Shown here: one piece after another, positions 2,793-58,895 of the stretch | Numbering within the stretch: position 1 is the first letter of the stretch | Layout of the letters: each line of letters begins with the position of its first letter | Assembly (NCBI GenBank): GCA_041674405.1 | Contig: JBAYVT010000001.1 | Span: 103,967-167,966 of the forward strand | Reading direction: 5' to 3' | Source: Patescibacteria group bacterium | GTDB lineage: Bacteria; Patescibacteriota; UBA1384; XYA2-FULL-43-10 | Length of the DNA: 64,000 nt | Notes under the pieces: model-generated | Told to the model about the DNA's origin: nothing | Database searches by the model: none | Seen by the model: only the letters and a program-made list of their open reading frames with translations | Program-made: the position numbers and the translations under genes

Positions 2793-2835
2793 TTTTTTGA
2801 AAAAAATAATTTCTAAATTTATTGAAATTATATCA

Positions 2836-3171: not shown

Positions 3172-3225
3172 TTTCGACTTCAATAATGATAACTTTTTTC
3201 AAATCAAAAACTTTCATTCCGACCA

Positions 3226-3274: not shown

Positions 3275-3389
3275 GTCATTTGTATTAAAATAGTTTTTTT
3301 GAAAAATCAGTTATAATATTTATATAGTATTTTTCATAGAATATTCAGAACAATAATTTATAAAATAATTTTAATTCACTGGAGGCACA

Positions 3390-3713: not shown

Positions 3714-3726
3714 CTTTTTATTTAAC

Positions 3727-4164
3727 ATGTCTGAACAAAGAACAAAAGTTGGCGTCGGAGTAATGATTCTGCGTGGCGGTAAGATCCTTTTGGGTTTGCG
3801 GAATGAAGATGCAGAAAAAGCCAGTTCCGAACTTCATGGCGAGGGCACGTGGACAATGCCTGGCGGAAAGATGGATTTTCAAGAAAAACTGGTTGATCTT
3901 TGTTTTCGTGAAACAAAAGAGGAAACTGGGATCGAGATTGCCAAAGATAAACTAAAACTTATCAGCATTCAAGAAAACATCACCGCGGACAAGCATTTCA
4001 TCACACTGGGATTTCTCTCGGAAAATTTTTCCGGAGAGCCGAAAGTTTGCGAGCCGGATGAGATCATCGAGTGGCGCTGGTTTCCAATCGCCGATATTCC
4101 GGAAAATATCTTTCCACCAAGCAAACAGGTGCTAGATCACTATTTGAATCATAAAATATTCTAA
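3727..4164 (+). CDS. NUDIX hydrolase
   Basis: Nudix box [24 protein letters not shown]. Confidence 0.85.
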
Positions 4165-4502: not shown

Positions 4503-4562
4503 AATAACAGAATAAAATAAATTCGAGTGTATTGCTAGAACAAAATTTCCAAAATCAGACCC

Positions 4563-21040: not shown

Positions 21041-21088
21041 AAAAAAATCCGATTAAGGTAATAAGTTAATTTTACCAGAAATTGTTTA

Positions 21089-21496
21089 TTAAGTTCTAGT
21101 GCTTTGGGTAATTTTCGGAGGATACTTATACTTCGGCAATACCGGACAATCAAATATTGATCCCTTTATCTGTGAAAACGCTGAAATAATTTCTTTCTTT
21201 CCACCCGGTGATTCGACCCCGACAATTGGTATGTTTAGGGCAAAGGCCATGGAGTTAAGAGTGGCAAGCCCTATTCTAAGCCCAGTATATGAACCTGGGC
21301 CAGGAACCGCCATAATAATTTCAATATCTTGTTTGCTAATCGCGTGTTTTTTTAACAATTTATCAATCGAAAATATTAAAAGCTCAGATTGCATCCCCTT
21401 GCTTTCAAACTTAATTTCGTCGATTTTGACAAAATCTTTCTTGCAAAACAATGCAATGATGGTTTGGTCAGAGGTTGTATCAGTAAATAGGATCAT
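21089..21496 (-). CDS. tsaB: tRNA t6A biosynthesis protein TsaB (short form)
   Basis: TsaB N-terminal region IIMAVPGPGSYTGLRIGLATLNSMAFALNIPIVGV. Confidence 0.75.
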   Translation of the reverse strand: MILFTDTTSDQTIIALFCKKDFVKIDEIKFESKGMQSELLIFSIDKLLKKHAISKQDIEIIMAVPGPGSYTGLRIGLATLNSMAFALNIPIVGVESPGGKKEIISAFSQIKGSIFDCPVLPKYKYPPKITQSTRT

Positions 21497-43507: not shown

Positions 43508-43975
43508 ATGCAACAAAAAACGAAAAAAGATACTATTGAAGAACGCAATGGCGGATTCGCCTGTGCGCATTGTAAGAAATGGGTAAATTTTTCTGACACG
43601 ATCGGAACACATCATAGAAATCATTGCCCCTATTGCCTCTGGTCCCTGCACGTTGACGACAAAGTTTCCGGCGACCGCAAGGCAGACTGCCATAGTAGCA
43701 TGGAGCCGATTGGATTGACGCTCAAAGAGGAAGGAATCGACAAATACGGGAACAAGAAACAGGGTGATGTGATGATTATTCATCAGTGTAAAAAATGTAG
43801 CAAAATTTCAATCAACCGCATCGCCGCCGATGATGGCAATGAAAAAATATTAGATCTATTGAACTATAAAATTGATTCTAAAACAAAAAAAGATCTCAGG
43901 GACTCTTCTATTGTTGTACTCAATCAATCAAATTATCCAGAAATTAAAACAGCTCTAATCGGTAAGAACATTTGA
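43508..43975 (+). CDS. RNHCP domain-containing protein
   Basis: CAHC...HHRNHCPYC...CKKC: the eponymous RNHCP motif with flanking Cys pairs. TATAAT lies 7 nt upstream of the ATG. Confidence 0.75.
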   Translation: MQQKTKKDTIEERNGGFACAHCKKWVNFSDTIGTHHRNHCPYCLWSLHVDDKVSGDRKADCHSSMEPIGLTLKEEGIDKYGNKKQGDVMIIHQCKKCSKISINRIAADDGNEKILDLLNYKIDSKTKKDLRDSSIVVLNQSNYPEIKTALIGKNI

Positions 43976-44575
43976 GGGAGTTTCTTCTAGGTGTTTGATG
44001 TCGTTAATAGTCTTTATGGAAATTTTTTTGTTTTCATCAATCAGTACGACACTAATGCTGGTATTGGCAATTTCTGTAAGCTTGCTGCCAATTTCTTGAT
44101 CAATGTAACAAAATAAATTCTTGAGCCAAATCCCGTGTGTTACAGCTAAAATTGTTTTATCCGAATAATCATTTGCGATCATCTTAATAAATTTCTTGAC
44201 ACGTATAAGCACGTCAGTGTCATTTTCGCCTCCCTCTGGGCAAAAATCTTCCTTAGACAGGCCCGAACTTAATCTCGCCTCCTCACGCAGCACCGACAAT
44301 TTACCTTCAAATATTCCGCTTCCTTTCTCTCGAAGCAAAGGCTCGTAAATAACCGGAAGGTCTGAGTGATATTTCAAAATTTCTTTAATAGTATCTTTGG
44401 TCCTTTTTAGATCGCTACAAAAAGCGATGTCAAAGTGTTGGTCTTTTAATCTCTCTCCAACTTTTCTCGCTTGTTCGGCTCCGATTTCGGAAAGTGGGTT
44501 ATGGGAATGTCCCTGAACAATTTTTTGGTCATTGTAGCCAGTATGTCCATGGCGGACAAATACGAGATTAATCAT
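43955..44575 (-). CDS. Histidine phosphatase family protein (phosphoglycerate mutase-like)
   Basis: N-terminal LVFVRHGHTGYN (RHG motif), downstream catalytic His (VTHG). Confidence 0.85.
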   Translation of the reverse strand: MINLVFVRHGHTGYNDQKIVQGHSHNPLSEIGAEQARKVGERLKDQHFDIAFCSDLKRTKDTIKEILKYHSDLPVIYEPLLREKGSGIFEGKLSVLREEARLSSGLSKEDFCPEGGENDTDVLIRVKKFIKMIANDYSDKTILAVTHGIWLKNLFCYIDQEIGSKLTEIANTSISVVLIDENKKISIKTINDIKHLEETPSNVLTD

Positions 44576-45041
44576 TGAGTTCCTTAATATATTTCACCAG
44601 CCAAAAGGTTTCGTCTGATTTGTTAGTAATTTTGCGATCGCTCAAAAATTTAAACCCGTTTTTTAGATAGAAGGCCCGTGTTCTATTATATGGTTCCCAA
44701 TCTTCTTTGTCAGATAACGTTTCCACAGTAATCTTTTTGACTTCCAGATTTCGCGCTGCCTTCTCAACCTTTTCAAGTAATTGCCCACCTACTCCCTTAC
44801 GATGAGAATTCAAGTTGACACCTAGCCAGGTAATTTTAATATCCCCCTCCTCGGATGAAAAAGTAATAAATCCAACAATTTTGCCATCATTTTCGGCAGC
44901 AAAACCATGATGCAATTTTAGATCAAGCGGAATTTCGTTCGAGATTGCATAATCATCAAACCAACCGGGATTTAGGGATTTTACAACCTTCATTACTCCG
45001 TCATGGTCGATTAGCTCAATCGGCCTAATTTTTATAGTCAT
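44568..45041 (-). CDS. GNAT family N-acetyltransferase
   Basis: ...HRKGVGGQLLEKVEKAARNLEVKKITVET... acetyl-CoA-binding core. Confidence 0.7.
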   Translation of the reverse strand: MTIKIRPIELIDHDGVMKVVKSLNPGWFDDYAISNEIPLDLKLHHGFAAENDGKIVGFITFSSEEGDIKITWLGVNLNSHRKGVGGQLLEKVEKAARNLEVKKITVETLSDKEDWEPYNRTRAFYLKNGFKFLSDRKITNKSDETFWLVKYIKELND

Positions 45042-48000
45042 TTATTTAATCCTCGAGATTCCGATCCAAATTTTCTCACCGTCGATACAGAATTCTTCTG
45101 AACCTTCCGGGTTTTCGATTTTTCCGTCAGTGCTTTCTTTCGCTAGTACTTCTTTGGCAATAATTTCCGACATTGATTTCATCACTTTTTTCAATACCTC
45201 TCCCGATGTAGCGTAATTTACAACTATCCTGTTCTCAACTTCAAACCCGGACTTTTTGCGTAGCGATTGGATGTTGCGGATGAGTTCCCTGGCAACACCT
45301 TCGGTTTTTAATTCGTCAGTTAATACCGTATCAAGCTCGACGCCTGTCTCCCCTACTCCGGAATTCTTATCTCCTTCGTCAATATGAATATCTCGTGCGT
45401 CGACATAAACTACTTTTTTCACATTTACTTCTTCAGCAATGATTGTTTCCAAATCTTCAGACAATTTTTTACCGGAATATTTTAGAAGAGCTAAAGGCTG
45501 GCGAACTTTTATTCCCGCTTCCGATCTTTTGGCTAAGCCAGCTTCAACAATCTGCCGTGTTTCTGCCATCTCATCCAGAACAGAAAGATCAAATTCTTCC
45601 GGTGCGGGGAAATCGGCCAAGTGTACCGATTCCGGATCACTTTCTTGCTTTAGGCCCTGATACACGGTTTCGGCGAACATCGGAGTAAACGGCGCCAAGA
45701 GTTTCGATAAGCCGATCAAAACTTCATACAAAGTATGATATGCCGATTCTTTATCGCTGTCAGACTCCGATTTCCAAAATCTGCGGCGTGAGCGGCGGAC
45801 ATACCAAGTAGAAAGTTCGTTTATAAAATCAAGAATCGTATTTGCCGGTCTGTAGGTATCATAGTTATCCAATGATTCGGTGATGGTTTCGGTAAGTTCG
45901 TTAAACTTCGCAAGGATCCATTTGTCTAGAATGTTTGTAGCTTCTGTTTTTCCGCTCGGCTTCCAACCGTCGATTGATGCGTACATAGAAAAGAATGAAT
46001 AAACATTCCAAAGCGTGATAAATAGGTTGCGGGAAACAGACAAAACTTCTTTTTCTGAAAAAAGCTTCGGCTCACCGGGCTGATTCACAGAATAAAGGAA
46101 GAAGCGGACGACATCGGCGCCAACTTTCTCAAATTCAGCCATCGGCTCGACAATGTTTCCCTTCGACTTCGACATTTTTTGCCCTTTTTCGTCTAGAATA
46201 TGTCCTGTCGAGATAACATTTTTAAAACAAGAATTATTTTTTACAATCGTCGAGATCGCGAGAAGCGTGTAAAACCAGCCTCGGGTTTGATCGATCGCTT
46301 CGCAAATGAAATCAGCCGGGTACTGCTCAGCAAAGAGTTCGCTGTTTTCGAATGGATAGTGATATTGGGCGTATGGCATGGAGCCGGAATCGAACCAGAC
46401 ATCCATCACTTCTGGAGTTCGTTTCATCGTTCCGCCGCATTTGCAGGTGAATTCAACCTCATCAACAAATGGTTTGTGAGGATCGAAGGCAGTACCGTCA
46501 GAATTTAGATAAAATTTATGAGATAATTCATGATCAGGGCGTTCGTGTTGGAAGTATCCAGAATAATCCAAGTTCCCTAAAATCATGTTCAATGCACCAT
46601 TAATGGCCCCGTGTGCAACAATAACGATTGTCTTACCAGGATATTCTTTTCCAATCTTGGCTAAAAATTCTTTGACCCTTTCTACAACATCAGCTCTCGT
46701 TTCCCCCGTGGTGCCAAGCTTAAAATTAAATCTTTGTTCAGGAATTTTCTCAGTCACCAAATAATCTTGAAAATCTTTCCTGTCAAGTCTTTGTTCGGGT
46801 GTAAGCTCATTCCATTCGCCGGAGTCCAGCTCAATGATTCTGTCGTCGAATATCAATTCCGCATCTACATGTTTCTTAACGATTTCTGCGGATTGCTTTG
46901 CTCTCAACACCGGAGAAGATATTATTATGTCAACTTTGTCCTTTATTTTTTTTGCGGTTGTTTCCACCTGAGTCACACCCTTCTCTGTAAGAGGCCATTT
47001 ATCAAGCGCTTTTGAATCAATATCAAGAATGTTTCTCTCCGTTTCACCGTGTCGGACAAAGATCAATTTCGTTACCTTAGTATTGCTCTCGTTGAAATCC
47101 ATAAAATTGCCAACGACTTTTTTCTCGTCACACTTGTCGCAAGTCCAGACCGGGAGCGGCGTCCCCCAATATCTGTCACGGGAAATTGCCCAGTCATTGA
47201 TATTTTCGAGCCAATTGCCAAAACGGCCGTGCTTTAAGTAGGCTGGGTTCCAGTTGATTGTCTCATTATTTTCAAGAAGCTCATCTCGAAGTTTCGACAT
47301 CGCGATATACCAAGAATCCTTGGCAAAGTAGAGAAGCGGTGAGTCACAACGCCAGCAGAACGGATAATCATGGGCGAACATCTCTTTTTTAAATAATATT
47401 CCACGTTTTTCAAGATCGAGTTTCACTTCTTTGTCGGCGTCTTTGACAAAGCTTCCTTTGCCAGCGCCGGCAAGCTCCGTCCCCTTTTCATCAACGGTCT
47501 TTAAAACCTTGATGCCGTTCTTGCGAAAACCAAATTCGTAATCATCCTCACCAAATGCCGGGGCAATGTGGACGATGCCGGTGCCGTCTGAATCGGTGAC
47601 AAAATCGGCGACAATCAGCTTGTAAACTTTCTCTCCACCTTCAGAAAATTTATCTCCGTCCGGATAAATCGCTTCGTAATCCGGTTTGTCGGTGAAAGAT
47701 GGGGCAGCAATTTCCGAACCGGTCAGCTCTTTAATGACATTTGCACCAGGCAAAACGGCATCGAGACGGCTTTGCGCAAGTATATACTTCTCTCCGTCTT
47801 TTTCTGCCAAAACGTATTTGATATTCGGGCCAAATGCTAGAGCGGCGTTGCCTGCGAGCGTCCAAGGCGTTGTCGTCCAGACAAGAAAATACGCATCTTC
47901 ATGATTTGATTTAACCTTGATATAGACTGATTCCTCTTCAACATTCTTGTATCCCTGGGCAACCTCATGAGAAGATAACGCCGTACCGCAGCGCGGGCAA

Positions 48001-48563
48001 TATGGCACGACTTTGTGGCCCCTGTAAAGCAAACCTCGTTTTTCAGCTTCGGATATCACCCACCAGATCGATTCGATATATTTGGAATCGTAGGTGACAT
48101 ATGGATCTTTCATATCGAGCCAGTAGGCCATGCGCTCGGTCATCTTTTCCCACTCGGATTTGTAAACAAAAACCGACTCTTTGCAAAGTTTATTGAATTT
48201 GGCAACCGAAGCATTTTTGTCGCCCGGAACGATATTCTCGATATCGCCCTTGCCAGAAATACCGAGCTCCTTCTCCACCTGAAGCTCTACCGGAAGCCCT
48301 TGCGTGTCCCAGCCTGCTTTGCGTCGGACATTGTAGCCTTGCATAGTTTTATATCGGTTGAAAAGATCTTTGAATGCGCGGTTTAGAACATGATGAATAC
48401 CAGGCTTGCCGTTGGCTGTCGGCGGTCCTTCATAGAATACAAAATTGCCTTTCGGGCTATCCTTCCCAAGGCTCTTCTCAAATGTTTTATCCTCTCGCCA
48501 AAATTCGAGAATTTTCTTCTCTTCTTCCGGTAAATTAAGTTTTGGATCAACCTTTTTGAACAT
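45042..48563 (-). CDS. ileS: Isoleucine--tRNA ligase, type 2 (eukaryote/archaea-like), carrying an inserted ~210-aa histidine-phosphatase-fold domain
   Basis: GPPTANGKPGIHHVL (HIGH region), CP1 editing domain, KMSKSKGN. The RHG-phosphatase insert (LIFVRHGETERN ... IVIVAHGAING) lies between the two zinc knuckles (WTCDKCDEK and FTCKCGG), at roughly nt 46476-47108. Confidence 0.9.
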   Translation of the reverse strand: MFKKVDPKLNLPEEEKKILEFWREDKTFEKSLGKDSPKGNFVFYEGPPTANGKPGIHHVLNRAFKDLFNRYKTMQGYNVRRKAGWDTQGLPVELQVEKELGISGKGDIENIVPGDKNASVAKFNKLCKESVFVYKSEWEKMTERMAYWLDMKDPYVTYDSKYIESIWWVISEAEKRGLLYRGHKVVPYCPRCGTALSSHEVAQGYKNVEEESVYIKVKSNHEDAYFLVWTTTPWTLAGNAALAFGPNIKYVLAEKDGEKYILAQSRLDAVLPGANVIKELTGSEIAAPSFTDKPDYEAIYPDGDKFSEGGEKVYKLIVADFVTDSDGTGIVHIAPAFGEDDYEFGFRKNGIKVLKTVDEKGTELAGAGKGSFVKDADKEVKLDLEKRGILFKKEMFAHDYPFCWRCDSPLLYFAKDSWYIAMSKLRDELLENNETINWNPAYLKHGRFGNWLENINDWAISRDRYWGTPLPVWTCDKCDEKKVVGNFMDFNESNTKVTKLIFVRHGETERNILDIDSKALDKWPLTEKGVTQVETTAKKIKDKVDIIISSPVLRAKQSAEIVKKHVDAELIFDDRIIELDSGEWNELTPEQRLDRKDFQDYLVTEKIPEQRFNFKLGTTGETRADVVERVKEFLAKIGKEYPGKTIVIVAHGAINGALNMILGNLDYSGYFQHERPDHELSHKFYLNSDGTAFDPHKPFVDEVEFTCKCGGTMKRTPEVMDVWFDSGSMPYAQYHYPFENSELFAEQYPADFICEAIDQTRGWFYTLLAISTIVKNNSCFKNVISTGHILDEKGQKMSKSKGNIVEPMAEFEKVGADVVRFFLYSVNQPGEPKLFSEKEVLSVSRNLFITLWNVYSFFSMYASIDGWKPSGKTEATNILDKWILAKFNELTETITESLDNYDTYRPANTILDFINELSTWYVRRSRRRFWKSESDSDKESAYHTLYEVLIGLSKLLAPFTPMFAETVYQGLKQESDPESVHLADFPAPEEFDLSVLDEMAETRQIVEAGLAKRSEAGIKVRQPLALLKYSGKKLSEDLETIIAEEVNVKKVVYVDARDIHIDEGDKNSGVGETGVELDTVLTDELKTEGVARELIRNIQSLRKKSGFEVENRIVVNYATSGEVLKKVMKSMSEIIAKEVLAKESTDGKIENPEGSEEFCIDGEKIWIGISRIK

Positions 48564-48599
48564 AAAATGTCCTTAATTTGAAATTTTAACACTGATCTA

Positions 48600-48860
48600 T
48601 CACACTGATTAACACTGATATTAAAAAAGACCTAACACTATTATAGCGAAAGGCCAATCTTTTTAGTATGTGTTGAACTTTTCACTTTATGCTTTCAACT
48701 TTATACTGAACCGATTGAGGTACCAACCTAATCATTCTTAATTTTGGCAATTACGCTTGCCATACGGGAAGTTCTATTCACCCTTAGGGTTTTCTTCTCC
48801 CAGCTCGTCCGTTGATTGCGGACTTATGCGCTTTTTTCTTATAAATTATATATAGCACAT
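48600..48860 (-). promoter_or_regulatory. Candidate T-box-like leader with promoter upstream of ileS
   Basis: Minus strand shows TTGAAT-17nt-TATATA, then a short hairpin GTCCG-CAATCAA-CGGAC with AUC-A in the loop, a GGCAAGCGTAATTGCC hairpin, and ATTAGGTTGGTACC (13/14 to the T-box core ATTAGGGTGGTACC; TGGT could pair with tRNA-Ile ACCA). No clear terminator or anti-RBS. Confidence 0.3.
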
Positions 48861-48948
48861 CGCTCAGATATATTCAATGAGCTATTGACATAACCAATTA
48901 TTTATGTTACCCTAAGATAAAGAAAATCGACTGCTAGGGGGTCTTACC

Positions 48949-49197
48949 ATGTCCAAAGCTAGTCGTATCGTTTGCGGGATCATCGCATGTCTGCTCCTCT
49001 ACCCGACTTATCGGGTCGGAGCGGTTGCCCTGGATTCAATGTACCGTTACTCGCTACTGAGCGAGCTCGACCTGATGAAGATGCCGCAGGTCGACAGATT
49101 CATCCTGGAGATGCAGTACGGGTGGCCTTTCCTCGTGGCCCTGGCCCTTTTCGTAGGAGTCCTGACCTTGGCGTACAAGGCTCTCTCACGTTATTAG
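48949..49197 (+). CDS. Small GC-rich membrane protein (82 aa, 2 TM), hypothetical
   Basis: AGGGGG RBS, TTGACA-type -35 upstream, own terminator. ~55% GC. Confidence 0.55.
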   Translation: MSKASRIVCGIIACLLLYPTYRVGAVALDSMYRYSLLSELDLMKMPQVDRFILEMQYGWPFLVALALFVGVLTLAYKALSRY

Positions 49198-49234
49198 GGG
49201 TTTGAGTCAGATGAATTGGCCACAAGAGCTCGGG

Positions 49235-49266
49235 CGCCCCACTAGTTGGGGCGTTCTTGCTTTATT
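49235..49266 (+). terminator. Rho-independent terminator
   Basis: CGCCCCA-ctagt-TGGGGCG followed by TTCTTGCTTTATT. Confidence 0.7.
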
Positions 49267-49318
49267 ATAATCATTTGGGTCCATTGTGATATTATTATTG
49301 AAGAGTTAATAGGAAGAT

Positions 49319-49804
49319 GTGGAAATGAATCAAGAAATCTATTTGAAAATCGGAGTTGTGGTTCTAAACGAAAATGACGAAATTCTTTTGATCAAGGAGA
49401 AAGTTGATGAAGAATCAGAACCGGCGCTCAACATCATAAAAGGGACTTTTGATAAACCTCACGAAAGTATTATCGATTGCGCCAAGCGAGAATGCTTGGA
49501 GGAAGCGGGGCTTGAGGTAGAGTTTCTAGGAGTCTTGAATATATTGACCATGCAGTCTCGCGGAAAACTCAAAATCCAGTTTAATTTTGTTGCCAGAGCA
49601 AACACCGACAAGGTTTCCCTGCCAAAAGAAAGAGGCCTCCACATTGAAGGAGAAAATATCATTGGAGAATCTTGGTTTACCAACGATCAGATTGCAGATC
49701 TAGAACCCAAAGATTTTGTTGCAGATTACACGCTACGCATTATCCGAGAATGGATAGAAAATGGTAAAGTATATTCCCTAAATATTTTGGAAGACCAATT
49801 TTAA
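49319..49804 (+). CDS. NUDIX hydrolase
   Basis: Nudix box GTFDKPHESIIDCAKRECLEEAGLEV. Confidence 0.8.
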   Translation: MEMNQEIYLKIGVVVLNENDEILLIKEKVDEESEPALNIIKGTFDKPHESIIDCAKRECLEEAGLEVEFLGVLNILTMQSRGKLKIQFNFVARANTDKVSLPKERGLHIEGENIIGESWFTNDQIADLEPKDFVADYTLRIIREWIENGKVYSLNILEDQF

Positions 49805-49805
49805 A

Positions 49806-50459
49806 TTATTGCAAATACTTAATTGCAATTTCCGCGACTTTGTTTGCTTTCATACCATGTTTATATTTTGACTCAAGGAATTCGATCAACTTTTTTTGCT
49901 TCTCGTAACCTTCTTCGCGATGACTTGGTAAAAATTCGCTAAATTCATAGTTCATCACAAATGTCAGCGCCTCTTTAAAATCGTTAAAACTCTCGTAAGG
50001 CAATCCGGCTTTTTTGAACTCCGGAGCAATCAGCTTATGTGTATAAAAATGTAATATTTCGTGAATAATATTCGAATTTGGATCCGGGCGGCCGAAACAT
50101 ACAAAAAAGTAACCTTGGCCGGTATTATATCCGCAACAAACATTGAATGTTAAAAAAGCGGTCAAATTGTCCTGCGTTTCATTGGTTTCGAAGAATTCAT
50201 CAGCTTTTTTAAAAAAAGGTTTTTCAATTTTTCGCCAATTATTTTCAATCGACTTAGTTTTTTCTGCAATATAGTCTCGTTGGTTCTCAGCATTTTGAGC
50301 AAAATATTTTGTCACATCTCTCTCATTATCAGGATCAAAACCAGACTCTTTAATTATGTAATAATTCTTCGGCTTTTCATTCGAGAGGTGATTTATCGAT
50401 CCAAGCGTAGAAAAATAATTTCCGATTTCTCTCTTTGTTGAATATTTGAAAATTATCAT
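49806..50459 (-). CDS. Hypothetical protein with HExxH motif (possible metallopeptidase-like fold)
   Basis: HEILHFYTH. Start set at MIIFKYST, 1 nt after the upstream stop; the track's longer ORF would overlap the CYTH gene by 65 nt. Confidence 0.4.
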   Translation of the reverse strand: MIIFKYSTKREIGNYFSTLGSINHLSNEKPKNYYIIKESGFDPDNERDVTKYFAQNAENQRDYIAEKTKSIENNWRKIEKPFFKKADEFFETNETQDNLTAFLTFNVCCGYNTGQGYFFVCFGRPDPNSNIIHEILHFYTHKLIAPEFKKAGLPYESFNDFKEALTFVMNYEFSEFLPSHREEGYEKQKKLIEFLESKYKHGMKANKVAEIAIKYLQ

Positions 50460-50460
50460 T

Positions 50461-51105
50461 CTATACCTCGATGTACTCTTTAAATTTTTCGAGGATGTCT
50501 GACAATTTATCTTTTTCAAGATCAATTCGATAACCAGGGCGACTGTTTAATTCATCCAGAAGGTCATAGAACTCTTCCTCACCCAAAACTTTCAGCCCCA
50601 AGGCATCAATTTCTTTGTCTAGTATTTTATTAGCGTCAGCAACATTCTCTTCATCAGTCAAGATTTCGGCCTCAAAATAATGTCCCCAATCAGGGACTTC
50701 AACAACTGCAAATTCGACTCCACGATACTCGTAGTCATATTTTGTGTTCGCCATAAGGACATATTTTGTAAATCCGAGGATTTTTAGAAATTCGATAAAA
50801 TCAGTGAATTTTTTGGTCTCAAATTCAAAATTATATTCTTTTCTGGCATCTTTGCCACTCCATTTGCCATATTTGCATGCTAACTCTGCTTGGCCATTTG
50901 TGATACGGATTTTAAGATCGACCGGATCATCTTTCACTTCGCGAATACTTTTTATGCTTGCGCTTTTTATCATCGAAAAGCGTTTTTTCTTGCCTAAAAA
51001 AGTGCCTTCCTTGGAGAGAAAAGAATTTAAATGCTCAAACTTTTCCGCGGTCAGTAGCCCGCGATGCTCGACTTCCATCTGCGACATATTATTCCTTATG
51101 GCCAA
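50461..51105 (-). CDS. CYTH-domain protein (triphosphate tunnel metalloenzyme / class IV adenylyl cyclase-like)
   Basis: N-terminal EVEHRGLL (ExExK-type) and alternating charged beta-strand pattern. Confidence 0.65.
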   Translation of the reverse strand: MAIRNNMSQMEVEHRGLLTAEKFEHLNSFLSKEGTFLGKKKRFSMIKSASIKSIREVKDDPVDLKIRITNGQAELACKYGKWSGKDARKEYNFEFETKKFTDFIEFLKILGFTKYVLMANTKYDYEYRGVEFAVVEVPDWGHYFEAEILTDEENVADANKILDKEIDALGLKVLGEEEFYDLLDELNSRPGYRIDLEKDKLSDILEKFKEYIEV

Positions 51106-51133
51106 ATTTAAAAAGTAGTATTATTATTTTACT

Positions 51134-52135
51134 ATGGAAAACAAACTAATTACCAGTCTAAATAAATTTTACAGTTTAGATATTACTCGGATTGTTGCCA
51201 AAGCTAAGGGCGGATTTTTGAGTGATAATATGATTGTGGCAAACAAAGACCAAAAATTCTTTCTACGCAAATACCGTGACAAATATTCCAGTGATGATAT
51301 TGCAAGTATACACAAAAGTAAGCAATTTTTCTTCGAACATGGCATTCCCATAATCATGCCGATTAAAACCGTAAATGGAGACACATTCGTTGAAATTACT
51401 GGTAAATTTTATGGATTATTTCCATTTATCGAAGAAAAAGATATTAACCGAAACAAGCTAAACGACGACGTTTTAATATCAATCGCTCAGATGCAAGCGA
51501 AAATGCATCTTTTGAGTAAAGATGGAACGCCAAAAGTTACTGTAGAATCGAAAAATGTTTGGGATAAAAAAAAATCTTTACAAATGGCAAAGGAATTTGG
51601 AAAAATCATTTCACAGAAAAAATTATTAAATGGATTTGATCGCTTAGCAAGGAAATTTATTAGGCTAAAGAAGAAAATAATTGAAGAAAATAAATTAAAG
51701 TTTGAAGATTTGAACATCAGGTCAGATCACCTGGTTCATGGTGATTTCCATGCCGGTAATCTGTTTTATGACGATAACGATACGGTAAAATATGTATTCG
51801 ATCTCGAAAAAACGATTTTCGCGCCACGGGCATTTGAGCTTGTTAGGTCAATCATATTTATATGTTTCAGTAAGGGCTTTGAAAAGGGCATGGAAAAAGC
51901 CGGTTTGTATTTGAAAGCTTATCACAAAATATATCCGATCTCGGATTCAGAATTTCGGGCAGGATTTCTCATGAGATATCTTGATATGGCTCATTCTTTC
52001 TGGATCGAAGAGCATCATTATCTAAAGAAGTACTACAAAACAGATGTTTTATACCGAGACGATTTTATAAAACTAGAATATTTTTCCCGTGATATCAAGG
52101 GCGTGATTCGGAGAATATTAAAAAACGCGAAATAG
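51134..52135 (+). CDS. APH-family phosphotransferase (aminoglycoside/homoserine-kinase-II-like)
   Basis: HLVHGDFHAGNLFYDDNDTVKYVFDLE matches HGD..N...D[FL]E. Confidence 0.75.
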   Translation: MENKLITSLNKFYSLDITRIVAKAKGGFLSDNMIVANKDQKFFLRKYRDKYSSDDIASIHKSKQFFFEHGIPIIMPIKTVNGDTFVEITGKFYGLFPFIEEKDINRNKLNDDVLISIAQMQAKMHLLSKDGTPKVTVESKNVWDKKKSLQMAKEFGKIISQKKLLNGFDRLARKFIRLKKKIIEENKLKFEDLNIRSDHLVHGDFHAGNLFYDDNDTVKYVFDLEKTIFAPRAFELVRSIIFICFSKGFEKGMEKAGLYLKAYHKIYPISDSEFRAGFLMRYLDMAHSFWIEEHHYLKKYYKTDVLYRDDFIKLEYFSRDIKGVIRRILKNAK

Positions 52136-52143
52136 CGAAATAG

Positions 52144-55100
52144 CTAAATCACGATATTTACAATTTTTCCAGGTACGACGATTACTTTTTTAATCTCTTT
52201 GCCAGTAATAAATGCGCTGACTTTTTCACTATTTTTAGCAGCTTCCTCGAGGGCAGTTTTTTCAATATCTTTATCTACTTCGATGACATCGCGAAGTTTG
52301 CCATTGACCTGAATGGCAATTTTGATCTTATCGTCGCCTTTCAAGCTTTCATCAAATTTCGGCCAAGCTGAATTTGAAACCAAACCCTCGTTGCCGAGCT
52401 TTTCCCATAATTCTTCGGCCAAATGAGGAGCAGCCGGTGCTAGAAGCTGGCAGAATACACCAAATGATTTTTTACTAATTTCTTTCTCGGCCGACATAAG
52501 ATTGTTGAAAGTCATAAGTTTGGCAACATAAGTATTCAAGTTGAATCGCTCAAGATCGTTCTCAACAGCAAAGACTAATTTATTTACAGCAACTGCAAGA
52601 TTATCACTATCAACTTTACCAGAGACTTTGTCCGAGTTTTCCCAAACTTTATTAAGAAATCTTGAAACGCCAGATAAGCCGTCCATGTTCCAGGCGGATT
52701 CTTTATCATACGGCCCGATGAACATAATGTAGGTGCGAAGCGCATCGGCACCATAGCGCTTCACAACATCATCCGGATTGACCACATTCCCCCGCGATTT
52801 GCTCATTTTTTGGTTGTCCGCGCCAAGTATGATCCCGTGAGCGATTCGTTTGTTATATGGCTCAAGCGTTGGCACTTTGCCAAGATCATATAGAAATTTG
52901 TGCCAAAAACGCGAATACAAAAGGTGCAAAGTTGTATGTTCGTTGCCGCCATTGTAAAGATCAACCGGCATCCAATATTTCAATTCTTTGACTGATGCTG
53001 AGAAAATGTCTTCGCTTGATTCATAATTCTTGATTCTTGATTCTTGATTCATTGCGTAAGCGATGAAGTACCACGATGATCCCGCCCAGTTTGGCATCGT
53101 ATCGGTCTCGCGCTTGGCGGGGCCGCCGCACTTCGGGCAGGTTGTATTTACCCAGTCGGTAATTGCGGCAAGCGGGGACTCACCGGTATCGGTCGGCTCA
53201 TACTTTTCAACCTCCGGTAAAGTAAGTGGTAAATCTTTCTCATCCATCGGCACAGTCCCGCACTTCTCGCAGTGGATGATAGGGATCGGCTCGCCCCAGT
53301 AGTGCTGGCGGGAAAATATCCAGTCACGAAGCTTGAAATTGACTGCGAAATCCCCGGCACCCATTTCCTTGAGCTTCTCGGTTATTTTCTTTTTACCTTC
53401 TTCTGATGTTAACCCATCAAACTCTTTGGAATTGGCAAGAACGCCATATTCCTCAAATGAATGTGCTGGATTATGAAAGCGGTCACGGACAATTTCATGC
53501 TCTATCGGCAGGACATATCCTTTGATATTCTCAATTTCATCCCAATCCGCCCAGAACGGTTCGCTTTCCTCTGCCTCTTCTTTGGATAACGGCTCCTGCT
53601 CCTCATCAAGCAACTCGAAAGCCAAAGGATAATATGTAGCTTTTCTATTCACATTTTTGTGAGTTGCATGGAAATGGACTTCCATCGGGCCGCCTAAGTT
53701 TCGAACGAATTTGACGTTCTTGTAACCGGTTTCTTCTAAAATCTCGCGCTTGGCGGTATCAACGATTGATTCACCTGGCTCAATGCCGCCGATAACCAAC
53801 CCGATCCAAGGAAACTTCTTCCACTTAAGGGCTAGAACTTTGTTATTTTTGGGATTTATTACCACGGCATAAACCTGCTTTCGCTCGACTGTCTCTACGC
53901 CATCGATTGGCGGATCATTTTTATCAATTAGTTTAGGAATGATAACTTCCTTGATTGGAATATTGTATTTTTCGGCAAATTCAAAATCCCTCTGGTCGTG
54001 CGCAGGCACCGCCATCACGGCACCGGTTCCATAGGTTGCGAGAACATAATCAGCAATCCACACAGAAACTTCCTCGCCGTTTATCGGATTTATAGCTTTA
54101 ATTCCTTTTAATTCCACTCCAGTCTTGTCTTTGGCAAGCTCAGTCCTGTCCATATCTGACTTTTTCTTCGCATTTTCAATATAGTTTTCCACATCTTTGA
54201 CATTTGATATTTGATCTTTGATTTTGTCAACGAGTTCGTGTTCCGGCGCTAATACTATATATGTCACGCCGAAAAGCGTATCCGCGCGAGTAGTGTAGAC
54301 CTTGATAATATTATCATTTAAGGATTCCAGAAACTTGGCTCTTTCAAGATCATTTTTTCCGGCTCTGCGTTCTTTTTGGGCGGTAATCTTATAACAATTT
54401 GCCAGCCATTTTGCATCGGGAACTAAAAATTCATGCCCGTCCAGTTCTTTTATAGTATCTCCCAGATCATGATCAAGTGTCCCAATCTCAATGTTGAAAT
54501 CATCAGTACGAAAGACGCAAACCTGAAATTTTCCGTTGTCCTTATCTTCAATTTTACTGTAACCAAGTTCAGAAAAGATTTTTTTGCTTTCATCAAAATC
54601 TTTGGCCAAAACTCCCAAATCAACATCTGCAGGATTTTCAAAAATATTTCCGCAATATCCAGCAACTGCAAAAGTACCATTAACCCAGAGTTTGATATTG
54701 CGCTTTTTAAATTCTGAATTGATCCTATCAATCGCTTCAAGCATTTTATTTGTTTTGTCAGAAATATTGGCATTCCCAAGATCAACTTTTTCTGAAGTTT
54801 GCTCCGCTTCGGTTGAAATGACAATTTTAAAATCAATTTCCGTTCCCTCGGATCGGCCAATCCAGTTTATCTGCTGGGTTTTGATATTCTCAAGATAATC
54901 AACGGTATCGAGATCCTTGATCAATCTATCTGCATAGGCTGTGATACGGAGCATCCATTGCTTCTGTTTGCGTTTTTCTGTCTGCGCGCCGCAGCGTTCA
55001 CAATTTCCGCCGATCACCTCTTCGTTGGCGAGGATGATTTTGCATGATGGGCACCAGTTAACTGGCATCTCGGCCTGAAATGCCAAGCGTGGAGTTTCTT

Positions 55101-55587
55101 TGTCGTCATCGGCAACTTCGACAAGCTTGCCGTTGACAATCGCGTGCTTATAGAACTGCATGAATATCCACTGCGTCCATTTATAATAATTGGGATCAGT
55201 AGTATTGACCTCGCGACCCCAATCGAAGGAATAGCCAAGCGATTTCATCTGCTTTTTGAAGGTCGCAATACTTAGTGTGGTAACGTCTCTTGGTTTTGTC
55301 TTGGTTTTAATTGCGTAATTCTCTGTCGGCAGACCAAATGCGTCCCAACCCATTGGAAAAAGAACATTGTAGCCTTGCATCCTTTTCATACGCGTAAACG
55401 CATCCGAGGCGGTGTAACCCATGCAGTGTCCAACGTGCAATCCTGATCCGGAAGGATAAGGGAACTCCATGAGGGAGTAGAACTTCGGCTTATCGGAAAA
55501 ATCAATGGACTGGCCGTATTTCGCCTCTTCCCAGGCCTTCTGCCATTTAGATTCAATTTTTTCAAAATCGTATTTTGCCATAATCAA
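52144..55587 (-). CDS. leuS: Leucine--tRNA ligase carrying two inserted enzyme-fold domains (nucleotidyltransferase-like and NUDIX)
   Basis: HVGHCMGY (HIGH), CPSC...CERCG zinc domain, NWIGRSEG, CP1 editing, KMSKSRGN, 1147 aa. Insert 1 sits between EIDFKI and VYTTRADT (E. coli has 7 aa there) and contains GTFAVAGYCGNIFENPADVDLGVL, a GS...DhDh nucleotidyltransferase motif. Insert 2 after YNIPIKEVI contains the Nudix box GGIEPGESIVDTAKREILEETGY. Confidence 0.9.
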   Translation of the reverse strand: MIMAKYDFEKIESKWQKAWEEAKYGQSIDFSDKPKFYSLMEFPYPSGSGLHVGHCMGYTASDAFTRMKRMQGYNVLFPMGWDAFGLPTENYAIKTKTKPRDVTTLSIATFKKQMKSLGYSFDWGREVNTTDPNYYKWTQWIFMQFYKHAIVNGKLVEVADDDKETPRLAFQAEMPVNWCPSCKIILANEEVIGGNCERCGAQTEKRKQKQWMLRITAYADRLIKDLDTVDYLENIKTQQINWIGRSEGTEIDFKIVISTEAEQTSEKVDLGNANISDKTNKMLEAIDRINSEFKKRNIKLWVNGTFAVAGYCGNIFENPADVDLGVLAKDFDESKKIFSELGYSKIEDKDNGKFQVCVFRTDDFNIEIGTLDHDLGDTIKELDGHEFLVPDAKWLANCYKITAQKERRAGKNDLERAKFLESLNDNIIKVYTTRADTLFGVTYIVLAPEHELVDKIKDQISNVKDVENYIENAKKKSDMDRTELAKDKTGVELKGIKAINPINGEEVSVWIADYVLATYGTGAVMAVPAHDQRDFEFAEKYNIPIKEVIIPKLIDKNDPPIDGVETVERKQVYAVVINPKNNKVLALKWKKFPWIGLVIGGIEPGESIVDTAKREILEETGYKNVKFVRNLGGPMEVHFHATHKNVNRKATYYPLAFELLDEEQEPLSKEEAEESEPFWADWDEIENIKGYVLPIEHEIVRDRFHNPAHSFEEYGVLANSKEFDGLTSEEGKKKITEKLKEMGAGDFAVNFKLRDWIFSRQHYWGEPIPIIHCEKCGTVPMDEKDLPLTLPEVEKYEPTDTGESPLAAITDWVNTTCPKCGGPAKRETDTMPNWAGSSWYFIAYAMNQESRIKNYESSEDIFSASVKELKYWMPVDLYNGGNEHTTLHLLYSRFWHKFLYDLGKVPTLEPYNKRIAHGIILGADNQKMSKSRGNVVNPDDVVKRYGADALRTYIMFIGPYDKESAWNMDGLSGVSRFLNKVWENSDKVSGKVDSDNLAVAVNKLVFAVENDLERFNLNTYVAKLMTFNNLMSAEKEISKKSFGVFCQLLAPAAPHLAEELWEKLGNEGLVSNSAWPKFDESLKGDDKIKIAIQVNGKLRDVIEVDKDIEKTALEEAAKNSEKVSAFITGKEIKKVIVVPGKIVNIVI

Positions 55588-55630
55588 AATTTAGCACGAT
55601 CAATCTAATTAATCAACGCTGATAGTATAT

Positions 55631-56371
55631 CTATGGTAGGCGACAAAAAAGTACTTCTTGTTGGTAATCTTTCGTTTCTGCAATTATTTTTCCCTCCGTT
55701 GAAAATAAGTAACCACCTCCCGGAAAATCATCATCCATATTTCGTCCAGACTGAGTCGCGACAGCAATATTGATTTTATTTTCTCTGGCATAATTTCCAA
55801 TTTTTGTAATGCAATTATTTTTCCACCACAAATAGCCCTTCTCCCAGTTACGATTTTCTCGATCGCCATACAAATCAGGAGATGCGCACTCAAACACTAC
55901 TTTGCAACCCTTGGTTGCATATTCTTTATATAATTCTGGCAAATCAATATCAGCACAAATTGTAATGCCGAACCTTACTCCACCCAAATCAAAAATTGGT
56001 GATTCAACTCCAGAAGAAAAAATCTTCTCCTCTCCGCTTTGGACATTATGCTTACGGTAAACACCTACGATTTTCCCATTTTGAGCAAAAATTTGGGTAA
56101 TGTGATATCCGGAATTGTCTTTTTCTCCTATTCCAAACAAAATTGCAATATCCTTGCTTGCTCCAACAACTTTCTTTACAGGTTTGCTCTCTAATTCCAG
56201 ACATGTATCGATATAATTATTTTCTGTAAAATAACCCGTTAGACTCATTTCCGGGAACACGGCTACATCCGCCTTTGCTTTTGCTGCAAAAGAAATATAA
56301 TCGGACATTCTCTCCGAATTAATTTTGATTTCACCCTTTGCTGAGGGCATTTGAACCAAAGCTATTTTCAT
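55631..56371 (-). CDS. Carbon-nitrogen hydrolase (nitrilase superfamily)
   Basis: MKIALVQM..., FPEMSLTGY, catalytic GITICADI (E-K-C triad context). Confidence 0.8.
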   Translation of the reverse strand: MKIALVQMPSAKGEIKINSERMSDYISFAAKAKADVAVFPEMSLTGYFTENNYIDTCLELESKPVKKVVGASKDIAILFGIGEKDNSGYHITQIFAQNGKIVGVYRKHNVQSGEEKIFSSGVESPIFDLGGVRFGITICADIDLPELYKEYATKGCKVVFECASPDLYGDRENRNWEKGYLWWKNNCITKIGNYARENKINIAVATQSGRNMDDDFPGGGYLFSTEGKIIAETKDYQQEVLFCRLP

Positions 56372-56802
56372 TGTTTATTCGTTAAATATTTAACAAGTTT
56401 TTCTTTTGCAAATGTTGGATAAAGATTTGGGGTTTTTGAAATGTCGTCGAAATCCATCCAGTGAATATAGTATTGATTATTTGAATCAGTCAACATTTTT
56501 CGCGGTTCGTTGAGTTTCGGTTTTCCGCTGAATTTATCAATCAAGAAAAAGTAGCTGGTTCTACCAATATCATTTCCATTCTTTTCAACATATCCCTCAA
56601 ACAAAAGTTTTCCAGTTTCAGCATCAATACCGAGTTCTTCTTTCAATTCGCGCTTCGCTGTTTGCTCGAGACTTTCTCCTTCCTCGACTCCACCGCCGGG
56701 AAAGCTAAAATATTCTTCTCCATCCTTGATCCTACGAAACAGGAGAATTTTATTATCTTTCAATATAATCCCGCACGCTCTTTGGGTTATCCTAAAATTC
56801 AT
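56368..56802 (-). CDS. NUDIX hydrolase
   Basis: FPGGGVEEGESLEQTAKRELKEELGI. ATGA overlap with the downstream C-N hydrolase. Confidence 0.9.
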   Translation of the reverse strand: MNFRITQRACGIILKDNKILLFRRIKDGEEYFSFPGGGVEEGESLEQTAKRELKEELGIDAETGKLLFEGYVEKNGNDIGRTSYFFLIDKFSGKPKLNEPRKMLTDSNNQYYIHWMDFDDISKTPNLYPTFAKEKLVKYLTNKQ

Positions 56803-56867: not shown

Positions 56868-56956
56868 AATTTTCTAGTTAATTCTTGATATTAGAAATCT
56901 TATCGAAATCCATCCAATGGATATAGTGCTAGTTGTTAGAATCACTCAGCATTTTC
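56868..56956 (-). pseudogene. Decayed C-terminal fragment of a NUDIX paralog (KMLSDSNN*HYIHWMDFDKISNIKN*)
   Basis: ~80% nt identity over 53 nt to 56447-56499 of the intact NUDIX gene, with protein-level similarity (KMLTDSNNQYYIHWMDFDDISKTPN) interrupted by stops. It overlaps the last codons of the methyltransferase gene. Confidence 0.5.
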
Positions 56957-57716
56957 CCAGAATTACAAAATATTGAGGAGAATTATTTTCGAAAATTTTA
57001 AGTATTTTCCAACCCGTCGGGCGAATTAGTTGCTCTAATTCACTCGGTGACAGATAGAGATATTCAAACCAGGGACCCGTGATGTCATCATATCGTACTC
57101 TCAATTTTACCTCTCCGGAAAGTTTGCCCTTTTTTAGGTTACAATTAAAATATGATCGATAGGCTGGATCATAAATCTTGTCCGGATTTGAACTCTCGGC
57201 AATAATAATAGCATTGTCACTTCCAGCACCATGGAGTCGTCTAAGAATTTCAGGGGCTTTTATTTGATTTTGCAATAGGCCCAAGTTATTACCCATTAAC
57301 AAAAAGGTGTCATACTTCAAATCTAACGAATCATTTATGTTCTCAATTTGACCGATTAATGATTTCTTTATACCTTGCATCTTGCACACCCTGATAGCGA
57401 GCGGAGAAGGGTCCATAGCTGTGACGTCTAATCCTTTTTCTTGTAAGTACAGGGCGTGTCTACCTGGTCCACACCCAATATCTAAAATCTTACCTTTGGC
57501 AAAGCCAACTGCAATAATCTCATTTTTGCTCCATTGTTCTGATTTTATAAAATAAAAATTTCCCGCAGATACTTCCGTTAAGCCATCATCTCTTTCGATT
57601 AGGAGAACATTGTCTTTGCCATTAAAACAATCCCAAATCTGTCTCCCAAAGGCATCATTATTTCTTTTTGCCTTCATGTTTAAAAACCAGTAATATATTT
57701 GTAGCATACACTTCAA
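56946..57716 (-). CDS. Class I SAM-dependent methyltransferase
   Basis: Motif I ILDIGCGPGRHALYL. Confidence 0.8.
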   Translation of the reverse strand: MKCMLQIYYWFLNMKAKRNNDAFGRQIWDCFNGKDNVLLIERDDGLTEVSAGNFYFIKSEQWSKNEIIAVGFAKGKILDIGCGPGRHALYLQEKGLDVTAMDPSPLAIRVCKMQGIKKSLIGQIENINDSLDLKYDTFLLMGNNLGLLQNQIKAPEILRRLHGAGSDNAIIIAESSNPDKIYDPAYRSYFNCNLKKGKLSGEVKLRVRYDDITGPWFEYLYLSPSELEQLIRPTGWKILKIFENNSPQYFVILGKC

Positions 57717-57823
57717 TATTAACTATAATTTGAGCAAAAACACAATTGATGATTCTCTAAATCATGAAGGAATCCTGATGGCTCAGCATATTAGTTGCAT
57801 AACTATCCTTAAATAAAAACAGT

Positions 57824-58882
57824 TTGCAAGAGTATCAACTCATCAAATTGTGGAAGGAAATAATGGTAGAAGGAAAATTTTATTTTTCACATGAACATGA
57901 GCAGCATACAGGCTTTACAGACAGTGAAGGAAATGATTGGGATGTACCTGGGCGGCTGGAGAAAATTGTCTCATGGATTGCCAGAAGGTATGGAGAAAAT
58001 TATTTAAATGTTCTGCAAGAAATAAACGAGTCTGATTTTATTGATATAATTCGGCGGGTTCACGAAGCCGAAATGATAGAGGAACTGAAACAAACTAGCC
58101 TAAGAGCAAAGGATGGCGAAGCCCTAATTACGTCATTTGACTCAGATAAGGAAACGAGCGTTACTCCTGTTTCGAGACATACATATAAAAGCGCACTTGC
58201 TGCGGTAAAATGCTCTCTTTCAGCAGCCGAAATGTTGAAAAGCTCTCGGTCAAACCTTGCTGTCGCCTTATCACGCCCTCCAGGACATCACGCTGGGAAA
58301 AATTATTATCATGGTTTTTGTTACATGAACAATATTGCTGTCGCAGCCGAATCTTTAAAAGAGGATGGAGAAAGAGTAGCAATTCTGGATATTGACGCTC
58401 ATCATGGCGACGGAACTCAACAAATCTTCCAAGATGACTCAAGCGTATTTTACTCTTCGCTTCACGCTGATCCAAATCTGGTGCTTCCGCATACCGGAAA
58501 GTCTGACGAGATCGGTAATGACGGAAGTATTTTGAATCTCCCTTATTCAATTGGTATCTCGACAGAAGAATATTTGACCTTGCTGAATTTTTCGCTTAAA
58601 CATATCCAAATGTTTGACCCGCAATATCTGTTAATATCGGCTGGATTTGATACCCACAAACGCGAATTTGAATCGATGGGCTTGCCACCAGTTACGCAGC
58701 TTGATTCACCCGACTACGAGGAGATAGGGCGGATGATTGGATCATTGTCTTTGCCAACTGGGGTGGTTCTTGAAGGGGGTTACAACCAAACTGCGTTGAG
58801 CGAAGCTTTGATGAATTTTACTATTGGCCTGGAGAACAGCTTAAAAACCAAGCCATGCTTTGACTTTTTTGCTCTAAAGTGA
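57824..58882 (+). CDS. Histone deacetylase/acetoin-utilisation (HDAC, arginase-deacetylase fold) family hydrolase
   Basis: ILDIDAHHGDGTQ, PPGHHAG and GFCYMNN motifs. Confidence 0.85.
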   Translation: MQEYQLIKLWKEIMVEGKFYFSHEHEQHTGFTDSEGNDWDVPGRLEKIVSWIARRYGENYLNVLQEINESDFIDIIRRVHEAEMIEELKQTSLRAKDGEALITSFDSDKETSVTPVSRHTYKSALAAVKCSLSAAEMLKSSRSNLAVALSRPPGHHAGKNYYHGFCYMNNIAVAAESLKEDGERVAILDIDAHHGDGTQQIFQDDSSVFYSSLHADPNLVLPHTGKSDEIGNDGSILNLPYSIGISTEEYLTLLNFSLKHIQMFDPQYLLISAGFDTHKREFESMGLPPVTQLDSPDYEEIGRMIGSLSLPTGVVLEGGYNQTALSEALMNFTIGLENSLKTKPCFDFFALK

Positions 58883-58895
58883 GTATTATTTTGCT

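Follow-up and report, generated by a model that had tools for sequence, protein, structure and literature searches.

The window analysed here is a 64-kb stretch of a metagenome-assembled genome (MAG) of Patescibacteria (candidate phyla radiation, CPR), and the elements in question are two aminoacyl-tRNA synthetase (aaRS) genes, ileS and leuS, which encode an isoleucyl-tRNA synthetase (IleRS) and a leucyl-tRNA synthetase (LeuRS) with additional domains inserted into them. Synthetases are among the most conserved enzymes, and whole foreign enzymes as internal insertions are rare; here three different catalytic domains lie inside two synthetases. The embedded domains belong to dedicated synthetase-associated subfamilies that are widespread in Patescibacteria, and, judged by their motifs, the phosphatase in IleRS and the ANT-like nucleotidyltransferase (NTase) and NUDIX domains in LeuRS appear to be catalytically intact accessory domains placed in surface loops. 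The synthetase genes and their inserts are as follows.

45042..48563, minus strand: ileS, a type-2 IleRS of 1173 amino acids (aa) with an internal insertion (Pfam tRNA-synt_1, Anticodon_1 and DUF5915; TIGR00392, 904 bits)
46488..47087, minus strand: His_Phos_1 domain embedded in IleRS, aa 493-692 (PF00300, E = 4.9e-31)
52144..55587, minus strand: leuS, a bacterial-type LeuRS of 1145-1147 aa with two insertions flanking the CP1 editing domain (Pfam; TIGR00396, 936 bits)
53446..53910, minus strand: NUDIX domain embedded in LeuRS, aa ~560-714 (PF00293, E = 3.6e-14)
54304..54819, minus strand: Pol-beta-type NTase-like domain embedded in LeuRS, aa ~257-428 (weak PF10706, AlphaFold2 (AF2) model, Foldseek)

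The histidine phosphatase in IleRS and the NUDIX domain in LeuRS had been named in the original prediction for this stretch, and Pfam identified both; the NTase-like insert was not listed there. The HIGH and KMSKS motifs were intact in both synthetases. IleRS was assigned to the type-2 (eukaryote-like) form by its TIGR00392 score, which exceeds the cutoff of 621 bits, and by the presence of the PF19302 (DUF5915) C-terminus. Its best solved match was IleRS2 of P. megaterium (8c8w, 881 bits), which aligns with residues 3-481 and 692-1050 of the window protein and has 20 residues opposite 211 in the latter. When compared with its closest relatives (L094, L097), the insertion appears as a clean 200-aa indel (residues 493-692), with one CxxC half of the zinc knuckle on either side, and the Pfam His_Phos_1 match spans about aa 500-680 within it. 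Both the RHG motif (VRHGE) and the downstream catalytic histidine in an AHG motif (VAHGA) of branch-1 histidine phosphatases were found in the insert, whose best solved relative was the phosphoserine phosphatase 4ij5 (E = 1e-16). With the branch-1 enzymes PspA (4ij5), PhoE (1h2e), and CobC it shares the RHG...H catalytic core, sequence matches at E values from 1e-16 to 1e-7, and the corresponding NCBIfam domain matches; unlike them, it scores below every equivalog cutoff and sits in the zinc knuckle of IleRS. No specific equivalog (PspA, CobC, dPGM, MutT, or RppH) was assigned, all NCBIfam scores lying far below the cutoffs (for example, CobC 86 against 163 and MutT 49 against 148).

LeuRS was identified as a bacterial enzyme with a CP1 domain from its TIGR00396 score (cutoff 548 bits) and a match to the PF13603 editing domain (E = 2e-59), and the CP1 editing motifs TTRADT and AHDQRD were intact. 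One retrieved sequence (P0011) was 100% identical to the window LeuRS. The NUDIX domain, for which the Pfam match spans about aa 570-687, lies between 'IPIKEVI' and 'GVLANSKEF', where CP1 ends on its C-terminal side, and takes the place of a loop of ~24 aa. Its NUDIX box, GGIEPGESIVDTAKREILEETGY, fits the consensus GX5EX7REUXEEXGU perfectly, and its AF2 model (pLDDT 92) gave 527 Foldseek matches to the PDB at E ≤ 1e-3, with NUDIX enzymes making up 50 of the 50 listed; its top matches were uncharacterised MutT/nudix proteins. The domain resembles NUDIX enzymes of the RppH and Ap4A/Ap6A-hydrolase type (E. coli RppH 4s2x, T. thermophilus Ndx1 1vc8, A. aeolicus 3i7u) in box and fold (Foldseek E ~1e-8 to 1e-7, TM 0.6-0.7), but identity to them is 16-23% and the LeuRS-type domain is embedded in, or encoded beside, synthetases. 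The NTase-like insert lies just before CP1, between 'EIDFKI' and 'VYTTRADT'. Its AF2 model (pLDDT 84) was matched by Foldseek to ANT(2'')-Ia (E = 1e-7, TM 0.67) and also to TM1012, LnuA, and the MenT1 toxin; together with this fold it keeps the G-[ST]...DxD motif of NTases (NGT...DVD). Since its PF10706 score of 19.3 falls under the cutoff of 21, membership of that family is not established by sequence. The likeness to the small Pol-beta NTases ANT(2'')-Ia, LnuA, TM1012, and MenT1 thus consists of the predicted fold (TM about 0.65) and the motif, whereas identity is 12-18% and the LeuRS insert is embedded in a synthetase. The same type of NTase-like domain was common to P0012 and P0130.

Accessory synthetase domains in general are already known, and include the NCBIfam model NF040702 ('isoleucine--tRNA ligase, N-acetyltransferase domain-containing'), to which the window IleRS does not belong (309 bits against a cutoff of 1999). 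Like NF040702-type proteins and like LeuRS with its CP1 editing domain and leucine-specific insertion, the window synthetases combine an extra globular domain with a preserved HIGH/KMSKS core and CP1 motifs; the present inserts, however, are hydrolases or transferases of a stand-alone type (His_Phos, NUDIX, ANT-like NTase) and not modules for editing or tRNA binding, and they are polymorphic between close relatives. No intein family appeared among the Pfam matches of either synthetase, and no dedicated intein test was made. In the literature searched, insertions of the NUDIX, histidine-phosphatase, or ANT-like kind were not described for any bacterial IleRS, LeuRS, or prolyl-tRNA synthetase (ProRS), and neither were their fusion and fission dynamics.

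The distribution of the insertions was determined in several homolog samples. A word-indexed search with the isolated domains (7 and 3 matches) had suggested that the insertions were nearly unique, and this was overturned by full-length and exhaustive searches. For IleRS, the first sample consisted of the best 80 ileS loci among GTDB species representatives, with record titles naming Nomura-, Campbell-, Taylor-, and Paceibacteria, Minisyncoccia, and others; an RHG-containing insertion was present at the same site in all 80. The motif was found in 81 of 81 embedded copies (as RHA in L051 and L070). Because this sample was score-biased, the search was redone with the insertion removed from the IleRS query, which gave 80 metagenome loci, just 13 of them with a His_Phos insertion. 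The five closest IleRS relatives (L094-L098, 63-73% identity) were without it. In a combined neighbour-joining (NJ) tree of the core of 148 IleRS, 92 of which carry His_Phos, 9 state changes were needed, and the window IleRS fell in a 13-member clade in which the domain occurs only in the window protein and in L004. For LeuRS, 76 of the 120 best cluster representatives contained the NUDIX domain, with 160-180 aa at the site against about 24 aa in plain LeuRS, and the NUDIX box was intact in 71 of these 76 copies. An exhaustive HMMER scan of 1.84 billion representatives returned 448 relatives of the LeuRS NUDIX domain (185 at E ≤ 1e-10); the 148 new relatives listed comprised 112 LeuRS, 2 ProRS fragments, and 34 short or free-standing proteins.

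Among close relatives the embedded domains act as exchangeable cassettes: they are present or absent, duplicated, and swappable for an α/β-hydrolase at the same site. On an NJ tree of the LeuRS core, NUDIX presence required 31 state changes over 117 sequences, and in 39 of the 117 the nearest neighbour had the opposite state, with pair identities of up to 93% in the conserved columns and 80-89% over the whole protein. The partner without NUDIX had a short, unrelated linker that differed from pair to pair. Such natural matched pairs with and without the domain (80-90% identity) could be used to probe the role of an accessory hydrolase under a minimal metabolism. Two to three NUDIX domains, some of them before CP1, were found in seven LeuRS (P0131, P0133, P0134, P0140, P0145, P0152, and P0176), and an α/β (serine) hydrolase occupied the pre-CP1 site or another position in five (P0034, P0059, P0121, P0016, and P0135); these variants with extra NUDIX and/or α/β-hydrolase domains use up to four insertion sites. 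A degenerate NTase-like copy, from which the DxD motif is gone, was located at a third LeuRS site in P0024, P0040, P0058, P0111, and P0122. Duplication, swapping, loss, and splitting thus occur family-wide on short evolutionary timescales.

Members of the same NUDIX and phosphatase subfamilies were also encoded as free-standing genes in other samples, several of them beside a synthetase gene.

NUDIX P0009: 4 nt upstream of a leuS without NUDIX
NUDIX P0144: separated by 1 nt from a downstream leuS with an embedded copy of its own, in the same synteny
NUDIX P0187: between argS and a His_Phos-bearing ileS, with a further NUDIX gene just downstream
NUDIX P0188: two genes upstream of a ProRS whose embedded NUDIX domain reaches 174 bits with the LeuRS-derived profile
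NUDIX P0008 and P0166: near no aaRS gene
His_Phos in L151: scores 155 bits with the embedded-domain profile and lies upstream of a domain-less ileS, at a distance of about 380 nt
His_Phos P0001-3: nested in the embedded clade, next to the domain of the window

For both NUDIX and His_Phos, therefore, members of one subfamily are part of the synthetase in certain genomes and have a gene of their own next to it in other ones. This resembles Rosetta-stone fusion and fission of functionally linked genes; it differs in that the fusion is an internal insertion and not end-to-end, and in that fused and adjacent copies may coexist (P0144). The ProRS of L093 (2762-4693) is an archaeal/eukaryote-type enzyme of 643 aa in which a NUDIX domain of the same subfamily (aa 390-541, 174 bits) separates the anticodon-binding domain from the C-terminal one; a free copy is encoded two genes upstream.

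Free-standing genes with the same folds occur in the window itself, and those within the 64 kb were compared with the embedded domains.

3727..4164, plus strand: free-standing NUDIX gene far from the aaRS genes (PF00293, E = 2.6e-18, 66.8 bits)
49319..49804, plus strand: free-standing NUDIX gene between ileS and leuS, with one extra residue in the box (PF00293, E = 1.4e-11, 45.0 bits)
56368..56802, minus strand: free-standing MutT-like NUDIX gene that overlaps the start of a carbon-nitrogen (CN) hydrolase gene by 4 nt (PF00293, E = 4.6e-20, 72.4 bits)
56878..56955, minus strand: 3' remnant, decayed and with an internal stop, of another copy of the NUDIX gene at 56368 (BLASTN, BLASTP)
43955..44575, minus strand: free-standing His_Phos_1 gene that overlaps a GNAT gene by 8 nt (PF00300, E = 4e-40)

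The original prediction had counted four stand-alone NUDIX genes. Three were confirmed by Pfam, all above the PF00293 gathering cutoff of 21.1 bits; the fourth was absent from an iterated six-frame profile search, which returned these three and the LeuRS domain. The predicted stand-alone RHG phosphatase was upheld by its Pfam match and carries the motifs VRHGH and VTHG. It had been described as adjacent to ileS; a GNAT gene lies in between, and all three genes abut or overlap on one strand. The predicted NUDIX fragment also proved real. It reads KMLSDSNN*HYIHWMDFDKISNIKN*, the C-terminal sequence of the NUDIX gene next to it being KMLTDSNNQYYIHWMDFDDISKTPN, and with the window as the database it matched that gene at 78.5% over 65 nt by BLASTN (E = 1e-10) and at 81% over 21 aa by BLASTP (E = 4e-15). 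The match is to the free-standing gene at 56368 and not to the LeuRS domain. The fragment, a vestige of a tandem copy of that gene, is the only local duplication. The stop and last codons (56946-56955) of a methyltransferase gene at 56946-57716 fall inside the remnant, and the 3' end of that gene was therefore apparently built over the truncated NUDIX copy.

In pairwise alignment the free phosphatase at 43955 and the phosphatase embedded in IleRS were 32% identical over 158 aa. The embedded domain was 47-49% identical to free-standing proteins of other samples and 27-38% identical to the 80 other embedded copies. Against a profile built from those 80 copies, the window's embedded domain scored 146 bits, the free-standing P0001-3 scored 127-136 bits, and the local gene at 43955 scored 98 bits; the local gene also fell outside the embedded clade in the NJ tree. 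For NUDIX, pairwise likeness between the window genes and the LeuRS domain was confined to the box (40-43% over about 45-50 aa), and when 235 aligned sequences were ordered by their distance from the embedded domain, the window genes took ranks 225-232 of 234. A profile of the 76 embedded LeuRS NUDIX domains, to which true members score 140-175 bits, gave 162-175 bits for free-standing members of other samples, 28 for the gene at 56368, 17 for that at 49319, and no match for that at 3727. The embedded domains are thus closer to homologs elsewhere than to the free-standing genes of the window. From their distant kinship and the wide occurrence of the insertions, the sequence comparisons show that the free-standing genes of the window, NUDIX and phosphatase alike, fall in other subfamilies and are neither source nor offspring of the embedded domains.

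Taken as a whole, the observations are best explained, and this explanation is considered fairly probable, by synthetase-associated exchangeable cassettes that act on a substrate common to aminoacylation and serve to clean up its by-products. The NUDIX subfamily accompanies LeuRS, ProRS, and the ileS/argS neighbourhood and is thus not tied to one amino acid; its occurrence with several kinds of synthetase, whether as an insert or as a separate protein, makes a substrate shared by all aminoacylation reactions probable. As a best guess, the NUDIX domain would hydrolyse adenylylated by-products (Ap4A/ApnN or stray aminoacyl-adenylate) close to their origin, and this clean-up may act in cis or in trans. 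The occurrence of RppH and Ap4A/Ap6A hydrolases among its fold neighbours is consistent with by-product hydrolysis and is no demonstration of it. The embedded phosphatase might have a comparable clean-up or salvage role. The modules would be helpful but dispensable, dispensability being indicated by their frequent loss. Several points weigh against this explanation. Sequence, profile, and fold searches of the PDB and NCBIfam do not separate NUDIX substrate classes, and a shared substrate leaves the ANT-like NTase and α/β-hydrolase cassettes unexplained. Two of the six free-standing subfamily members examined lie near no aaRS gene. The local phosphatase is probably co-transcribed with ileS, so that a functional tie is possible despite the distant kinship. 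In addition, all trees are NJ trees without support values, and the homolog samples were ranked by score and are biased accordingly. Candidate roles include by-product clean-up, nucleotide salvage, tRNA repair, and antibiotic defence.

The last two of these roles could be joined in a reading in which the rapidly exchanging toolkit (NUDIX, His_Phos, α/β-hydrolase, and ANT/MenT-like NTase), fused or adjacent, would act at the synthetase as a system for conflict or repair that disarms toxins aimed at this enzyme or mends damaged tRNA ends. This is regarded as unlikely; if true, it would amount to a 'target-embedded immunity' of a form undescribed for aaRS. Its defence component taken separately, in which the cassettes and the GNAT and APH neighbours would inactivate aminoacyl-adenylate-mimicking or other synthetase-directed antibiotics at their target, is rather doubtful. 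Fast gain, loss, and swapping in close relatives is typical of accessory or conflict functions, the NTase domain is most like the antibiotic-modifying ANT(2'')-Ia and LnuA, and the neighbourhood holds GNAT, an APH-family kinase, CYTH, a methyltransferase, a deacetylase, and a nonribosomal peptide synthetase (NRPS). GNAT enzymes (MccE/RimL) and hydrolases detoxify aminoacyl-nucleotide antibiotics, and the mupirocin and agrocin clusters hold resistant copies of IleRS or LeuRS. However, no known resistance family came up above threshold in the searches made, which did not extend to PADLOC or resistance libraries, the window gene order is not conserved in relatives, and we know of no established role of NUDIX enzymes in such resistance.

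Maintenance of tRNA ends was judged improbable in its turn. It would have the phosphatase remove 2',3'-cyclic or 3'-phosphates, the NTase add nucleotides, the α/β-hydrolase deacylate, and the NUDIX domain act on the 5' end. The LeuRS insertions do flank CP1, which binds the CCA end during editing; the fold neighbours of the NTase-like domain include the MenT1 tRNA-acceptor nucleotidyltransferase and CCA-adding enzymes, and those of the NUDIX domain include RppH. To our knowledge, however, branch-1 histidine phosphatases do not act as RNA-end phosphatases, the best matches of the embedded phosphatase are small-molecule phosphatases, and the existence of free-standing versions indicates that tethering is not required.

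Neutral or selfish insertion is very improbable. Under it, the domains would drift in and out of permissive surface loops without a functional link to aminoacylation, as the frequent losses, the absence of a visible effect on the synthetase core, and the tolerance of several domain types at several sites might suggest. Catalytic motifs are nevertheless kept in 71 of 76 NUDIX and 81 of 81 His_Phos insertions although domain identity falls to about 30%, and the same subfamily recurs in LeuRS and ProRS and, unfused, beside leuS, ileS, and proS, which would not be expected under neutrality.

Next to no credence is given to the local duplication and domain capture put forward in the original prediction, a model rejected because every similarity ranking contradicts it and by which the embedded domains would have been captured recently from the nearby free NUDIX and phosphatase genes or would be parental to them. 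Genes of the same fold do lie within two genes of both synthetases, and one local NUDIX duplication did happen, as the fragment attests. That fragment, however, resembles the free-standing gene, the identities and box-limited likeness given above are low, the local genes stand at the bottom of the distance and profile rankings, and the insertions are common to large numbers of other genomes. The embedded domains are thus distant from every local paralog and widely conserved, an outcome that the original prediction had itself named as speaking against it. The wider idea of recurrent duplication and capture does hold at the level of the family, since multi-copy NUDIX LeuRS, patchy presence, and members beside leuS, ileS, and proS point to duplication and capture or fission around aaRS genes elsewhere and not for the genes of the window. 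That the fusions are assembly chimeras or mis-called genes, as metagenomic data and the NCBI records of both proteins (IleRS, MFA7243836.1; LeuRS, MFA7243841.1; each labelled only 'class I tRNA ligase family protein [Patescibacteria group bacterium]') could lead one to suspect, is hardly credible and was rejected, because the open reading frames (ORFs) are uninterrupted, the unchanged IleRS protein is present in independent assemblies (a 67-kb Logan contig and a 396-kb ENA contig), and the insertion recurs at an identical position in large numbers of independent homologs. One consequence for annotation is that essential genes bear only that family name at NCBI.

The two remaining genes directly associated with the synthetases and hydrolases are the following.

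44568..45041, minus strand: GNAT acetyltransferase gene directly after the ileS stop codon (PF13508, PF00583)
55631..56371, minus strand: CN-hydrolase gene between the NUDIX gene at 56368 and leuS (PF00795, E = 6e-26)

On a single strand, the genes for IleRS, GNAT, and the free phosphatase follow one another without a gap or with an overlap, and the NUDIX gene at 56368, the CN-hydrolase gene, and leuS are co-directional. Conservation of synteny in related genomes, a check that had been proposed for this locus, was examined in the 80 genome and 80 metagenome ileS loci and in the closest IleRS relatives, and the window gene order was not conserved. In the 80 other genomes leuS was never within 10 kb of ileS, and neither a free His_Phos nor a homolog of the GNAT gene stood beside ileS at any of the 80 genome loci. 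The 80 metagenome loci had no GNAT homolog, and their sole free His_Phos gene was that of L151, which belongs to the embedded subfamily. None of the window's neighbouring genes was common to the closest IleRS relatives.

The high density of small hydrolase genes that had been remarked on was assessed by an iterated profile search, a strict regular expression for the NUDIX box having missed one window gene. Around ileS of 80 other Patescibacteria, 18 free NUDIX ORFs were counted in 1.53 Mb (0.75 per 64 kb), and the window holds 3 (Poisson p about 0.04). A mild NUDIX excess was therefore retained, but clusters occur elsewhere too. The Nomurabacteria MAG L054 has four NUDIX genes within 23 kb around ileS (2362-4521 and 20715-21173), three of them in tandem, so that tandem NUDIX amplification is not special to the window. 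At L088 (Logan SRR36607724, 1-12498), a His_Phos-bearing ileS lies amid four NUDIX genes, argS, and genes for a dUTPase, a thymidylate kinase, a Zeta-toxin-like protein, and an ITPase-family NTPase, a dense 'house-cleaning nucleotide' neighbourhood.

Near the synthetases of the window (49806-52135 and 56946-58882) there are further genes for a CYTH protein (50461-51105), an APH-family kinase (51134-52135), the methyltransferase already mentioned, which is of the SAM-dependent type (56946-57716), and a histone-deacetylase-family enzyme (57824-58882). Taken with the GNAT and CN-hydrolase genes, they give the region the look of one for resistance or secondary metabolism. An NRPS open frame of more than 1700 aa lies on the plus strand (58878-64000), at about 3 kb from the leuS cluster, and continues past the window end; its AMP-binding, PP-binding, and Condensation domains have the order A-T-C-A-T, and an NRPS is not a usual feature of Patescibacteria. 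Elsewhere in the window, a hybrid sensor kinase of 969 aa (13301-16210, plus strand) combines a MEDS domain, three PAS domains, HisKA, HATPase, and a receiver, and is large for a reduced genome.

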